A DNA stretch of 64,000 nucleotides, taken from a virus. Shown in pieces: positions 2 to 61,172 of the stretch. The translations under genes and the position numbers were made by a program. The stretch's first letter is position 1, and every line of letters starts with the position of its first letter. The stretch is taken from the IMG/VR virus record IMGVR_UViG_3300022690_000671, positions 15,948 to 79,947 of that record; one strand, 5' to 3'. The notes under the pieces were generated by a model that worked only from the letters and a program-made list of their open reading frames with translations, made no database searches and was not told where the DNA came from.

Positions 2-1477
2 GCAGGGGGAGATAAAACTCTTGTCAGAAATTTAGGTGGTTTAGCTGAAGACGGGTTTGCGCTTGGATCGAAAGATGGGCGCGTTGGTACTACATCCACA
101 AATGGGGTTCAGACGTTTGATCTTGTAGGAGGAGGTAATGTCACAGCCTATGAAACTATCAATGGTACTAGAACGGGTATGGAAATTACCCAAACTGGAG
201 GAACAGAAGATATTTATTACACGTCGGGTGCTCTTGTCCATAAGGGTCAGAACGGATCTTCCGTGGCATCTAAGGATGCTGGGCATGGTAATATTGACGA
301 CGGTTACATATTTCATGACGCAACAAATAATGAAGTCATCCTGGTTGCTAATGGCTTCCTGGTTGTTATGGACGATGCTCTGACTACCATAGCAATTGAT
401 GTTCTTCTAACGGCAACAATTGCTGCTCCTCAATGTGTTGGATATGACGACGCGTCAAGAGTGGCATATGTGTTTGGAGATGATATTGCCAATGCTTCGG
501 CTAAGACTTTGTTTGAGGTAAGTAGAGACGGATTAACAATAACAGCAATATTTGATGCAACAGCCTCGGCCTTTACTGTCAAACAAAACTCACAGGGCGT
601 CCACGCATTTTTGGTAATATCAGACGGTTGTGTTGCGTCTATTCCTTCCCAAATTAGTCAAGAAGGTGGAAATGGAATCGTCTTCTTCGAGGAAAGTGTT
701 GGTCTGCGTTGGTTTACGTTAGATGATCCTACGACCGTTACAACAATTACAGGAACACCAACGACTGGTATTGCTGCTAATAGCGTATTCTATGACTTTA
801 CTAATGATCGCGTCTACTACGTTAGAGCGGGGTCGCTTCGCTATATTAAGAGAACTGGTGGGACAGAAATTACGATAGGGGTCGTAACTGGAACTCATAC
901 AGGACACGATATTACGAGAAGAGAAGTCTTTGTCGTTGATGATTCAGATGGCGGCGTTGATGTGTATAACATCGATACAGGTGCGCTTGTGTTATCTGCA
1001 TTTACTGGAGAGACATCCAAATCTCAACAAGCTATTGAGTATGATCCAACCACTGATGATTTTTGGTTGGGCGACAATACAGATGCGACGGACGAAATGC
1101 GTATAGGAGACCGACCTGACGCGACAGGTATCGTAGTGGCATTTAATCTCGACAGTCAGGGCGGGGCATCCTGCGACGACTTTGCTATTAGTGGTATAAA
1201 CCGAGAAATTTTCCGTGCTAGGGGAGCATCTATTGTTCGTCATGATGCAATTGATACGACGGGCACAGATACCAGTATCAAAACCGGACTTCTTGGAGCC
1301 GGGGCCGTAGCTATAATTTTCAATCATGAAGATTCTTTAGTATATTACTCAGAACAAGTTGGTGCAGGTGCCGCTTATAATATTCGAAGATTCACTCGAA
1401 CAGGTACTTCTGATACTTTACTTTACGCTGGAGCATCGACAAATGTCATCTCTTCTATTTCATTCATTACAGTTTAA
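2..1477 (+). CDS. Virion protein with beta-propeller-like repeats (tail/receptor-binding candidate), 5'-partial
   Basis: The frame of ORF 179..1477 is open back to base 2. G/T/D-rich, with repeated short beta-strand motifs (VFYDFTNDRVYY, IEYDPTTDDFW, IIFNHEDSLVYY). First gene of the + strand structural run. Confidence 0.55.
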   Translation, partial: AGGDKTLVRNLGGLAEDGFALGSKDGRVGTTSTNGVQTFDLVGGGNVTAYETINGTRTGMEITQTGGTEDIYYTSGALVHKGQNGSSVASKDAGHGNIDDGYIFHDATNNEVILVANGFLVVMDDALTTIAIDVLLTATIAAPQCVGYDDASRVAYVFGDDIANASAKTLFEVSRDGLTITAIFDATASAFTVKQNSQGVHAFLVISDGCVASIPSQISQEGGNGIVFFEESVGLRWFTLDDPTTVTTITGTPTTGIAANSVFYDFTNDRVYYVRAGSLRYIKRTGGTEITIGVVTGTHTGHDITRREVFVVDDSDGGVDVYNIDTGALVLSAFTGETSKSQQAIEYDPTTDDFWLGDNTDATDEMRIGDRPDATGIVVAFNLDSQGGASCDDFAISGINREIFRARGASIVRHDAIDTTGTDTSIKTGLLGAGAVAIIFNHEDSLVYYSEQVGAGAAYNIRRFTRTGTSDTLLYAGASTNVISSISFITV

Positions 1478-2083: not shown

Positions 2084-2743
2084 ATGGCTATTTTAGTATC
2101 AGATATTATTGTTCAAATTAGGCGTAAGTTAGATCAACGTCCGTTGGAAAACGAGGATGTCCAAACGGATTCCGCTGTTATTGGATCTCCCTCGACTAAT
2201 TTTGGGGATCTTAATTTGCTTACTCGTATTAATCATGCAGTTGTCTTCATTGCTAAACAGGTAAAAGCAATGCATATATCGGCGTCAATTTCCAACTACA
2301 CCGGGCCTTTTCCTGATGTAGCAGCAAACGCCGATCTTTTAAGGCCGCTTTTTAGCCGAGTTTTTGCAAATACGATAAGAGCAACACAACGAAGCGTCGA
2401 CCGACAACGTAGATTAGAAAATAGTGGCAGGGCCGCATCTGCAACTTTTCCAGTTTATACCTACGAAGATGGTAAACTGGAAATAACACCAAGTAGCGGA
2501 ACTGATAATGCTTTTATCGTCATAGTTCCCACTATACTGACAACAACTAATCAGAACTTGGGAATTGATGAACGTTTTGAAGCGGCTGTTATTTGGCACG
2601 TTGTAGCTTCGTGTTATGAAACCATGAGACAAACTGATATGCATTCGGCATTTATGGTTCTTTTTCAAGACGAGATTCAACCTTACTTGTTGGATAATAG
2701 GTTGGACAACGTGTTCGATGAGCGAGAAACGGCGACGGAGTAA
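2084..2743 (+). CDS. Putative tail adaptor/ring protein (paralogue of 1477..2082)
   Basis: 219 aa. Adaptor-like N-terminus (SDIIVQIRRKLDQ...LLTRINHA) plus the shared SGRAA...FPVY motif. Confidence 0.55.
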   Translation: MAILVSDIIVQIRRKLDQRPLENEDVQTDSAVIGSPSTNFGDLNLLTRINHAVVFIAKQVKAMHISASISNYTGPFPDVAANADLLRPLFSRVFANTIRATQRSVDRQRRLENSGRAASATFPVYTYEDGKLEITPSSGTDNAFIVIVPTILTTTNQNLGIDERFEAAVIWHVVASCYETMRQTDMHSAFMVLFQDEIQPYLLDNRLDNVFDERETATE

Positions 2744-3695: not shown

Positions 3696-4307
3696 ATGAG
3701 TAAGACACGTTTTGTAAGTATTGTTACAGTCGTAGAAGTTCAAGCTTCATCCAATGATGCGGCTCTTAAACTCGCAAGAAGGTATGTTGATATTAGTACT
3801 GGACCTGGCGATATCGTAAATGTTGTAGAAAACAAAACTCGTTTCTATGATATAACTGAGGACTATATTTTCTATGAACTTTATGACGCGGAGGAAGTCG
3901 AAGAGTATGAAGAATACGAAGATTATATAGAGACCGAAGATCAGGGAGTTTCCGATGGGACCACAACGTCGGACTATGTGCCGCTTATCAATTTCGACGA
4001 AGACAAGTTCGATGATGACGGTGGTCGTACTTATTTCGATGCAGATGAGGAATTACGATTACTTAAACTTGAGATTGAAGAAGAGGCTGAGGTAGATAAA
4101 GCTGTTATTTCAGCATTAGACCAAGCCCATAAAGATACGAAGGAATACCAAGAAAATGGTCGAACCTATTTCGATGTAGACGAGGAATTGCGCCTTGTTC
4201 AAGAAGAGGCTGAAGTTGATGGTTCTATTACTTCAGCATTAACTCAAACATATGAAACTGCTATGAGAGAACTAGGCGATAAGAACTACCAAAAAAACGC
4301 AGAATAA
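3696..4307 (+). CDS. Hypothetical acidic protein with internal repeat
   Basis: GAGG RBS. GRTYFD.DEELRL...EEAEVD occurs twice. Confidence 0.7.
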   Translation: MSKTRFVSIVTVVEVQASSNDAALKLARRYVDISTGPGDIVNVVENKTRFYDITEDYIFYELYDAEEVEEYEEYEDYIETEDQGVSDGTTTSDYVPLINFDEDKFDDDGGRTYFDADEELRLLKLEIEEEAEVDKAVISALDQAHKDTKEYQENGRTYFDVDEELRLVQEEAEVDGSITSALTQTYETAMRELGDKNYQKNAE

Positions 4308-4310
4308 ATT

Positions 4311-4709
4311 ATGGCCCTTACAGACGATCAAATAAGTCGTCTTGGTTATCGCCAAGCATTGACTACAAACAGTTCGCTGCCGTCCGATGATATAAACATC
4401 GGCCTTATATATATTCCATTGGCTAGAAATCTGATGGAAGATCGTTCTACGTATCTAACAGCAACTGATGCTCCGGACGTAGCAGATTTGGCAATAATCG
4501 AGTTTGTTAGATTGACACTTCTTGGCCTTCAGCCGGAAACTGATGTAAGATTTACGACGATGAAGATGAGATGGATGCAATCGGCATCTATTTCTAGACA
4601 ACAAGAAGCTGAAGTTTCGTCCGATTGTTATCAAGATCCGAAATTTAATAAGTTTCGGAAACGCCTTCGTAATTTCTCTGTTCGGGAGAATCTTTGTCCT
4701 GACAATTAA
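4311..4709 (+). CDS. Hypothetical protein (possible virion protein)
   Basis: 132-aa ORF tightly packed in the operon. Confidence 0.55.
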   Translation: MALTDDQISRLGYRQALTTNSSLPSDDINIGLIYIPLARNLMEDRSTYLTATDAPDVADLAIIEFVRLTLLGLQPETDVRFTTMKMRWMQSASISRQQEAEVSSDCYQDPKFNKFRKRLRNFSVRENLCPDN

Positions 4710-57068: not shown

Positions 57069-57233
57069 AGTCTTATTGTATCTTTTTTTTTATGTTAATT
57101 GAATTACATTTATAATATAAGACCTTGTATATCCAAAAGCTATTGGACTAAGGTCCAATACTCGTAACTAAACTGTTACATTTTTATTACTTCTACTAAC
57201 ATCTAGTTTATCGCCCTACTGACGCTGTTATAG

Positions 57234-57307
57234 TGGACCTGGTCGGATACGAGCCGACAACCTCAACCTTGCAAAAGTCGCGCTCTGCCTATTGGAGCTA
57301 CAAGCCC
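57234..57307 (-). tRNA. tRNA-Ala(UGC)
   Basis: GGGCTTG/CAGGTCC acceptor with G3:U70; CGACT-TTTGCAA-GGTTG; atypical T loop CTCGTAT. Confidence 0.88.
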
Positions 57308-57747
57308 ATAAACAAAAATATAAAAAACGTAGCTAAAATTAAAGCGACTCCGGTTTGGCGTTGTATGCGTCGTCTATTTCCATACCATAGCTTGGGAATA
57401 TCATGGATACCTAGTTCCCAGGTAGACTCTTCGAAAGGATCGGGGGTAGGTAGATTAAACGCATCATTGATTCCCTTCTGGAAATAGTAGTTGCCTATTA
57501 TTGAAGCACCATATGCTGCAAAAAACGAGAGAATAAGAGACAGAAACAGATTAAATCTTAGGGAAAACACTAGAAGAGGAATCAACATAGTGTTTAGTTG
57601 TCCTATGATTCCTAATCCTGATTGCACAAAGTGAAGATTTGAGTTGTCTTTACTATATAAAGCATAGCTTTTTTGTCCATCTAATACACGTCTCACCGCT
57701 TCAAACGCAAGAGGCAATATAAAATAAATGATTAGGATAACGATCAT
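57298..57747 (-). CDS. Multi-pass membrane protein; stop codon lies inside tRNA-Ala
   Basis: 149 aa with several hydrophobic helices; ends ATG GGC TTG TAG, where TAG is tRNA nt 8-10. Confidence 0.65.
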   Translation of the reverse strand: MIVILIIYFILPLAFEAVRRVLDGQKSYALYSKDNSNLHFVQSGLGIIGQLNTMLIPLLVFSLRFNLFLSLILSFFAAYGASIIGNYYFQKGINDAFNLPTPDPFEESTWELGIHDIPKLWYGNRRRIQRQTGVALILATFFIFLFMGL

Positions 57748-58884: not shown

Positions 58885-58971
58885 TGGCGGAGAATGTGGT
58901 AGTCGAAACCACTTCACCTTTCGGTGGCCTCTGATTAGCAATCAGGCACATTACCGTTCTGTCAACTCTCC
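58885..58971 (-). tRNA. tRNA-Ser(GCU)
   Basis: GGAGAGT/ATTCTCC-GCCA; TTGCTAA loop; long variable arm CACC-GAAA-GGTG. Confidence 0.9.
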
Positions 58972-59304: not shown

Positions 59305-59332
59305 AAGAAGGTAAATTTTTCTTCGGTGGTTG

Positions 59333-59405
59333 CGGCACTGAACGGATTCGAACCGTCATCTTTCGCATAGACAGTGCGATGCTCTTGCCGTTAAGCTACA
59401 GTACC
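59333..59405 (-). tRNA. tRNA-Asp(GUC)
   Basis: GGTACTG/CAGTGCC acceptor, G73; TCGCA-CTGTCTA-TGCGA. Confidence 0.92.
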
Positions 59406-59576
59406 TTTGCTTTCGATTAAGGACTCAACGAAAACATGAACATCAAAGTCATCTACTCGCCATACTGGAAGTCGAGAATAAACCCATACGATAGCATCAG
59501 TGATAAGTTCACGATTATCTTCCCCAAATTCATTAACTAATGCGTCTATTTCCTTATTTTGCAACTCTACGCTCAT
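59391..59576 (-). CDS. Hypothetical protein; stop codon lies inside tRNA-Asp
   Basis: Ends GGT ACT GTA GCT TAA, which is tRNA nt 1-15. Confidence 0.55.
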   Translation of the reverse strand: MSVELQNKEIDALVNEFGEDNRELITDAIVWVYSRLPVWRVDDFDVHVFVESLIESKGTVA

Positions 59577-60364: not shown

Positions 60365-60435
60365 ATGTTTGCCTAACGTATCAGATACAAAACGCCGCGA
60401 CGCGCTTCTCTTAACACGTTAGGACTTTATAAAAT

Positions 60436-60560
60436 CGCCAGGAGACGGAGTCGAACCGTTCTTACCTGTGGACTGTGTTGCAGCGTCCTACAACTCCACA
60501 CAACCCGCTATTTCTTACGCTTATTGCAAATCCACATAAGATTTCGCTTGTTGTCCCAGC
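60436..60560 (-). ncRNA. tRNA-like RNA with acceptor stem and T arm but an expanded core
   Basis: GCTGGGA/TCCTGGC; ACGG-TTCGACT-CCGT; long hairpin TGTGGA-GTTGTAG-GACG-CTGCAAC-ACAG-TCCACA. Confidence 0.55.
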
Positions 60561-60572
60561 ATAATATGTGAT

Positions 60573-60917
60573 TGGTGGAGACGGAGGGTAACGATCCCTC
60601 GTGCTGAAAGTCGTCAGTAGTTGCCATCTACATGGATAGCACATCGTGGTGTGCGGCCATCTAACAGGTACTACGGTTGAACGTTGCTAAAGTGACACTG
60701 AGTTTCTTGATCTAAGCAACAAGATCGAGAACAGTGGACGGAATCATTGTGATTGCGGCAAGATCCCCTTCGGAATCTCCGCCGACGAAGTTGGTCTGAG
60801 CCAAGAATTCGTCGACCGTCATTTGTGATGTGTTTGCATCTATGGTTGGTAGGCTCTTTACCTACAAGCACCATGCAGCAAAGACTTCGATCTCTCAGTC
60901 GAATCCATTTCGTCCCC
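60573..60917 (-). ncRNA. ssrA: tmRNA (345 nt)
   Basis: 5' GGGGACG-AAATGGATTCGAC; 3' GAGGG-ATCGTTA-CCCTC-CGTCTCC-ACCA; G3:U70; ATAGAT-GCA resume context; tag ORF 60837-60712. Confidence 0.93.
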
Positions 60918-60929
60918 ATGATGTAAAGA

Positions 60930-61170
60930 ACAAGTCACCACCCTATCCGTCTTTCGGGCAGATTTATCACACAGAACACCAAACGGACTGCGTGGGTTTC
61001 CCTAAGCTGCGGGTAATACATCTAATCCCGGTAAAGAGTCAATGTACCTTCTGAAAGAGTTACCGCTCAATCAGACAACCTTATTTAAGAACGTCCCACC
61101 CACTCATTTACCCGAGGTTCGTTGCAGCTACTACTCGGCACCTTCTTCTATTTCGGCTGAATGGTTAGGC
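60930..61170 (-). ncRNA. Candidate ~240-nt structured RNA between tRNA-Phe and tmRNA
   Basis: No credible ORF. Stems CCTAACCATTCA/TGAGTGGGTGGG, CCGAG/CTCGG, CTGA..GAG/CTC..TCAG, CGGG/CCCG; two GAAA-capped hairpins. Confidence 0.5.
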
Positions 61171-61172
61171 TG

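Follow-up and report, generated by a model that had tools for sequence, protein, structure and literature searches.

We identified a tmRNA gene in a 64,000-nucleotide stretch of viral DNA (the window; bases 15948-79947 of a linear 79,947-bp IMG/VR viral contig), and we put at about 75% the probability that it encodes a working, phage-borne one-piece tmRNA transcribed with the tRNA/RNA island of the phage (Table 1). Its tag frame runs to 41 codons, and folding indicates that the extension is a discrete, stably folded module of 84 nt inserted exactly in frame, which a sequence-only reading of the same DNA had missed. The RNA is a structural variant of a known RNA, and what is new in it is chiefly this folded module within the reading frame. 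The contig (66% complete by CheckV, G+C about 42%) contains long ORFs under the standard code and genes for phage replication and the virion, and 16 tRNA genes lie on the minus strand of the window. No close cultured phage was found (the best protein identities are about 30%), and blastn and megablast searches of INPHARED gave no nucleotide match for the phage.

The gene matches RF00023 over the full model (1-374), its score of 65.6 bits (E=2.7e-25) exceeding the gathering score of 47, and the whole RNA folds far better than its shuffles; the sequence-only reading had called a phage tmRNA here, which the match and the phage contig around it bear out. The acceptor stem consists of 7 bp (GGGGACG paired with CGUCUCC), followed by ACCA (the discriminator A and CCA), and contains a G3:U70 wobble, the mark of alanine acceptors, which can be read directly off the sequence. 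The T stem has 5 bp, and the T loop, AUCGUUA, is an unusual variant; the same T arm recurs in another phage tmRNA (L004) and in the TLD-only RNAs described below. With this acceptor stem, the T arm and ACCA, the RNA keeps, at the level of its sequence, everything needed for alanine charging. The helices of the acceptor stem, the T arm, H2 and H5 are all predicted at high pair probability. The four pseudoknots expected of a one-piece tmRNA (PK1-PK4) are largely missing, which explains the modest Rfam score. In the place of PK1, folding predicts a nested hairpin, as had been supposed from the letters; Rfam puts it in the PK1 columns, with a deletion, and the sole alternative crossing pairing would, by inspection, have zero-length connecting loops. 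The usual PK2-PK4 region is reduced to about 78 nt with one well-supported hairpin (tmRNA positions 258-286), and yet the total length is typical. These losses do not bar the RNA from membership among the tmRNAs, since pseudoknots are dispensable or replaceable in E. coli tmRNA (PMC2481249).

Table 1. Features of the tmRNA gene, with positions in the window.
Feature	Window positions	Strand	Basis
Complete one-piece tmRNA gene with encoded CCA end, 345 nt	60573..60917	-	RF00023, 65.6 bits; fold z=-3.81
Acceptor stem, 5' strand (tmRNA 1-7, GGGGACG)	60911..60917	-	helix 1-7/335-341, pair probability 0.99
Nested hairpin at the position of PK1 (tmRNA 44-76; helix 44-48/72-76 around helix 53-58/64-69)	60842..60874	-	pair probabilities 0.82 and 0.99
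Frame-setting upstream AUAGAU, U at -5 and A at -4 (compare E. coli U85, A86)	60838..60843	-	Rfam alignment; rule from PMC2481249
Tag frame (protein P0003), opening with the GCA resume codon, 41 sense codons	60715..60837	-	translation; codon usage
Predicted in-frame four-way junction, 84 nt = 28 codons (tmRNA 98-181)	60737..60820	-	fold
Helix 5 (tmRNA 182-222), directly adjoining the four-way junction	60696..60736	-	Rfam H5 columns; pair probabilities 0.96-0.99
UAG stop codon (60714-60712; tmRNA 204-206), at the loop/3' stem edge of helix 5	60712..60714	-	frame and fold
Much reduced pseudoknot domain (tmRNA 223-300)	60618..60695	-	Rfam alignment with large deletions; fold
T arm (tmRNA 318-334), acceptor stem 3' strand (335-341) and ACCA (342-345)	60573..60600	-	Rfam alignment and fold

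Three independent lines point to the GCA at tmRNA position 81 (60837-60835) as the resume codon, where the sequence-only reading had placed it. Rfam aligns AUAGAU|GCA AAC with the consensus resume region at the top posterior probability. In E. coli, the frame is set by U85 and A86, the resume codon following four bases after A86 (PMC2481249), and a U(-5)A(-4) pair stands at the same offsets here, as it does in four tmRNAs whose tags were called by ARAGORN (L004, L044, Bxz1, and L069). ARAGORN itself made no call on the native sequence and stayed silent as long as 34 codons or more were left in the frame; when we trimmed the frame in silico to at most 33 codons, a tmRNA was called, with the resume position (81) and the stop given here. 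Because the call returns on the shortened frame, the silence on the native gene reflects a built-in ceiling on tag length and is no verdict on the gene. As far as can be judged from the letters, the frame-setting elements are thus kept: U(-5)A(-4), and then GCA. The position of the stop codon follows the rule for tmRNAs, in which it lies in the loop of helix 5 (PMC1168896). Translation from GCA would have to reach this UAG after 41 codons, so that 42 residues would be appended, including the alanine carried by the tmRNA.

The translation is identical to the one first proposed, in frame, stop, and length (126 of the 345 nt, with the stop codon). The tag starts with ANTSQ and ends with TVLDLVA; it has a net charge of about -6 and no basic residue, and contains DLAA at residues 25-28 in addition to the terminal LVA, both of which had been noticed before. 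C-terminal LVA is a good ClpXP degron, as known from variants of the ssrA tag, and its presence at the end of the frame argues that an ordinary degron is retained. AlphaFold predicts the bare 41-mer with low confidence (pLDDT 62) and only two short helices.

An open frame of 41 codons is not significant by itself (P=0.42; 42% of dinucleotide-preserving shuffles are open), and we rejected it as stand-alone evidence. The codon usage of the frame is informative. When 13 long ORFs of the window are used to train a log-odds model, with stop codons ignored, the tag frame scores 9.49, as compared to 8.10 +/- 5.65 for real in-frame windows of 41 codons, -10.7 +/- 5.6 for stop-free off-frame windows (0 of 164 reach 9.49), and -3.8 +/- 4.6 for stop-free shuffles (P=0.0007 for the tag frame); the other two frames of the tag region score -11.7 and -13.6. 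The 28 codons of the 84-nt module also look coding when scored alone (4.21, P=0.012 against both nulls). Codon usage thus matches that of the real genes of the phage in the tag frame only, and the module alone is likewise gene-like. An ORF of 82 amino acids in another frame over the tmRNA was discarded, having non-coding codon usage (-0.28 per codon).

The module is predicted to fold into a four-way junction with a closing stem (GACGG/CCGUC) and three hairpins (tmRNA 104-135, 136-163, and 164-176), all helices having pair probabilities of 0.84-0.98. The MFE structure (-34.2 kcal/mol) is the same as the centroid and makes up 27% of the ensemble, and none of 200 shuffles folds as well (z=-3.67). 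The junction starts 17 nt past the resume codon and abuts helix 5. When the 84 nt are taken out, the tag is left with 13 codons and ordinary ends, an Ala-Asn start and an LVA finish; by our own estimate, an insert of 84 nt would be both in frame and free of stop codons by chance in roughly one case out of six. Such a stable junction, so soon after the resume codon, could hinder translation. The phage genome contains the insert only once, so we do not see it as a mobile or repeated element. We also considered an origin by tandem duplication of the tag end together with helix 5: TVDEFLA-CAG in hairpin 1 lies 84 nt from TVLDLVA-UAG in helix 5 and could be its copy, with a change from UAG to CAG. 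We rejected this origin: 84 is the best self-offset, but it lacks significance (P=0.34; P=0.25 by local alignment), and TRF reports no tandem repeat. The tag of Cellulophaga phage phi14:2 (see below) is not structured (z=+1.32), and among the long-tag phage tmRNAs examined, a folded module within the frame was predicted only in the window tmRNA.

By the usual teaching, a tmRNA tag is a short degron of some 10 residues. The commonest length is 10 among 97,179 curated sequences (PMC11915505), and the published range is 8-35 amino acids (PMC8012679, PMC2862035), so a tag of 41 codons lies outside it. The sequence-only reading had called this length exceptional, which holds against the literature and is overstated otherwise: 41 codons is beyond the published range and yet not unique, since tags of the phi14:2 family run from 34 to 50 codons, two of them having exactly 41. 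Cellulophaga phage phi14:2 (NC_021806), a cultured, crAss-like phage, carries an unannotated tmRNA of 472 nt at 4031-4502 (L075:1501-1972), with an RF00023 score of 46 bits, slightly under the gathering score of 47. Its tag has 38 codons by the U(-5)A(-4) rule, of which ARAGORN gives only the last 11 residues. A peptide-level pattern made from this tag retrieved 25-26 IMG/VR contigs (L078-L103) with 17 distinct tags, from which the range above is taken. Taken together, the window tmRNA and the phi14:2 family indicate that standard tools and the literature understate how long phage tags can be, and phage surveys built on ARAGORN (e.g., PMC7162821) probably miss or mis-report tmRNAs with long tags. 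ARAGORN also missed three jumbo-phage tmRNAs scoring 71-122 bits (L041:1501-1855(+), L042:1501-1855(-), and L045:8712-9066(+)); their tags are ordinary by eye, with 10-12 codons, and the absence of an encoded CCA end may have caused ARAGORN to pass them over.

Searches for relatives of the window tmRNA were negative in every collection that we scanned. None was found in INPHARED (blastn and megablast) or in GTDB genomes; scans of IMG/VR with patterns for the 5' end, the 3' end, helix 2, and the tag at the peptide level returned only unrelated tmRNAs, TLD-only RNAs, or nothing; and a scan of JGI metagenomes yielded only L004-like tmRNAs and TLD-only RNAs. The tag peptide has no homologue in Pfam, in the phage's own genome, in a set of 5.8 billion proteins (longer proteins), or among 1.84 billion representatives. 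The weight of the window tmRNA is limited accordingly, as it is a singleton.

As the sequence-only reading had observed for the window, no smpB is seen: SmpB (PF01668) was not found in the whole 79.9-kb contig (66% complete), and smpB is also absent from three other tmRNA-bearing phage contigs that we examined. The contig encodes no ClpP and no proteasome/HslV-type peptidase, and a promoter and terminator scan around the tmRNA gene gave nothing exceeding chance. The upstream flanking ORF of 235 amino acids (called product, 190 amino acids) has one relative, P0002, with 76% identity on a 1.4-kb Logan contig, and no relative in IMG/VR.

Immediately downstream of the tmRNA, at 60436-60560(-), a further RNA (about 115-125 nt) combines an acceptor-like stem of 7 bp with a T arm of the canonical type, GGUUCGACUCC; it has no recognisable D or anticodon arms and was called neither by ARAGORN nor by Rfam (E up to 1). 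No credible ORF lies in the roughly 250 nt that separate tRNA-Phe from the tmRNA, at 60918-61171(-), and Rfam matches nothing there (E up to 1; scanned range, 60400-61100); presumably this stretch is a further structured RNA of the island. A long-arm tRNA at 58888-58971(-) was detected by Rfam (45.8 bits) and is missing from the ARAGORN list. In addition, the stop codons of two ORFs lie within the tRNA that follows: that of the ORF at 57298-57747(-) in tRNA-Ala (57233-57307(-)) and that of the ORF at 59391-59576(-) in tRNA-Asp (59332-59405(-)). Both ORFs have gene-like codon usage (0.09 and 0.30 per codon, respectively). With the stop codons so placed, an RNase P cut at the 5' end of the tRNA would yield non-stop mRNAs, and these could serve the phage tmRNA as built-in substrates.

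Our best explanation is that the tmRNA would be released from the tRNA/RNA island by processing and would receive its alanine from the AlaRS of the host, and that host AlaRS, SmpB, and EF-Tu would all serve it; for SmpB we suppose this because the contig has no smpB. Host SmpB would deliver the tmRNA to stalled ribosomes, and the ribosome would restart at GCA, unwind the junction and helix 5, translate the module, and end at UAG, leaving the rescued chain with 42 more residues that end in LVA. This end would still route the tagged chains to ClpXP-type proteolysis. The acidic insert of 28 residues may serve as a spacer or as the binding site of a putative partner, and the folded RNA module may also substitute for the lost PK2-PK4 domain. 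The sequence-only reading had suggested that the extra peptide redirects rescued chains to another protease or is an appended functional peptide; the present data appear to favor neither side of this suggestion.

The strongest rival to this explanation concerns what the module is selected for. It could be kept mainly as RNA, whether as a scaffold for the lost PK2-PK4 ring, as a protein-binding site, or as a brake at the mRNA entrance; the 28 residues would then be a tolerated by-product, and the frame would be kept open only so that the ribosome gets to the LVA degron and the stop. The fold is indeed very well defined (MFE equal to the centroid, 27% of the ensemble, z=-3.67), the pseudoknot domain has only about 78 nt while the total length is a typical 345 nt, and the long tag of phi14:2 is unstructured (z=+1.32), so the structure is special to the window RNA; moreover, in E. 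coli, both the pseudoknots and the tag template can be replaced (PMC2481249). On the other hand, read in the tag frame, the insert has gene-like codon usage (P=0.012), a property not required of an element that serves as structure alone. We regard an RNA-level role as a serious alternative that is compatible with our best explanation, and selection mainly for the RNA as possible, if on the unlikely side.

The other rivals would do away with the long tag or with its function. The tmRNA may be a decaying or decoy molecule that mainly soaks up the SmpB or AlaRS of the host, as has been proposed for TLD-only phage RNAs, its long frame being the result of a lost stop codon. TLD-only phage tmRNAs are known, and a similar molecule inhibits tmRNA (PMC4131195, PMC11915505); TLD-only RNAs with the T arm of the window tmRNA are common, its pseudoknots are largely lost, and the loop of hairpin 1 has CAG where helix 5 has UAG. 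We nevertheless consider a decoy improbable, because the resume motif, the frame, the degron-like end, and the stop in helix 5 are all intact, the codon usage is gene-like, and the self-similarity at offset 84 that duplication with stop loss would leave is not significant (P=0.34). Resumption elsewhere or in another frame, for example at an internal GCC GCA, would give a short real tag, and could be suspected from the internal DLAA, from the in-frame Ala codons at residues 27-28, and from the later start that ARAGORN places in phi14:2. We give it slim odds, since U(-5)A(-4) is found only at the GCA of position 81, where the Rfam alignment also has its top posterior probability, while the internal Ala codons fall within one of the helices of the junction; a tag in the +1 or -1 frame would have 5 or 55 codons, in neither case with a tag-like hydrophobic end; and the ARAGORN call in phi14:2 is most simply the length-ceiling effect that we measured on the window tmRNA. 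The least probable of the rivals, and one that we hardly credit, is that the module is an intervening sequence that is removed from the mature RNA and leaves a tag of 13 codons. It is self-contained, with exactly 28 codons and its own closing stem, and its removal leaves a normal-looking tag, but it matches no Rfam family, intron families included, has gene-like codon usage and no second genomic copy, and we know of no mechanism in bacteria for splicing such an element.

Returning to translation of the whole 41-codon frame, the window tmRNA represents one more, independent lineage of phage tmRNAs with long tags. Its folded module within the frame is a natural test of how much template structure the ribosome tolerates, and also of whether phages re-programme what becomes of rescued proteins. 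A broader and quite tentative proposal, which we think is rather doubtful as a whole, is that long tags (34-50 residues) arose repeatedly and independently in phage tmRNAs; that the extension arose here as an in-frame folded module, constrained both as RNA and as peptide; that the extra peptide alters the fate of proteins rescued in infected cells away from plain ClpXP degradation (through a phage adaptor, sequestration, or counter-defence); and that the module replaces the pseudoknot ring.

Among known systems, the TLD-only phage tmRNA of the mycobacteriophage DS6A type shares the alanine-type tRNA-like domain with the window tmRNA, and differs from it in having no reading frame, whereas the window tmRNA has a complete mRNA-like domain with the resume motif, the 41-codon frame, and helix 5. 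The "TLD only" form of DS6A was reported to inhibit tmRNA (PMC4131195). We observed RNAs of about 72 nt that resemble this form in phage-type tRNA arrays of metagenome contigs, at L049:9828-9899(+), L050:20-91(-), L051:581-652(-), and, in L052, at 33-104(+) and about 207-288(+). They have G3:U70, the CCA end, and the AUCGUUA T loop, as in the window tmRNA, with no reading frame, and were not called by ARAGORN, nor by Rfam at the gathering score. The array of L051 also contains, at 2375-2449(-), a tRNA with the anticodon CUA (an amber suppressor, labelled tRNA-Pyl by ARAGORN), which hints at TAG recoding in that phage. TLD-only matches to RF00023 of 81 nt (47.5-60 bits) were also found in Lentisphaerota/Victivallales MAG contigs (L055, L056, L060-L064, L067, L068, and L071), often in several copies per contig (for example, two copies about 705 nt apart in L060 and two about 706 nt apart in L063); they are highly conserved across MAGs (alignment A2) and share the odd T arm of the window tmRNA. 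They may represent either a phage or defence element or this lineage's own unusual form of tmRNA.

The tmRNA of the mycobacteriophage Bxz1 group (PMC4131195) is likewise phage-borne, lies in a tRNA array, and has a long acidic tag with a hydrophobic end and no basic residue; together with the phi14:2 family, it sets a precedent for phage tmRNAs that stand in tRNA arrays and have long tags. It differs in having 435 nt, a fuller pseudoknot domain, and a tag of 25 codons that stays inside the ARAGORN limit and the published range, and there is no sequence relationship between the two. With the standard tmRNA (SsrA of the E. coli type), the window tmRNA shares the tRNA-like domain with G3:U70 and CCA, the long helix 2, the UA motif four bases before the Ala resume codon, the stop codon in the loop of helix 5, and a tag that begins with Ala-Asn and ends with hydrophobic residues and Ala. 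It departs from the standard form in its 41-codon tag (as compared to the commonest length of 10) and the folded junction inside the frame, as well as in the hairpin in place of PK1, the near loss of PK2-PK4, the T loop AUCGUUA, and its location in a phage contig with no smpB.

The phi14:2-type tmRNAs, which belong to crAss-like flavobacterial phages, are similar to the window tmRNA in being phage-borne, in having long tags with ordinary ends around an extra middle, and in that the full tag is not reported by ARAGORN. Their frame is unstructured and their T loop canonical, whereas the window tmRNA has a folded frame and the T loop AUCGUUA. Their tags also hold a conserved core, Q..ANMTVVHNILNG, ten residues of which (MTVVHNILNG) were fixed by the search pattern, and the window tag lacks this core. 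Comparison of the phi14:2-family alignment (A3) with P0003 by hhalign aligned only MTV, with a probability of 0.4%, and BLASTP found nothing. Judging from these comparisons, the window tag is unrelated to the phi14:2 family.
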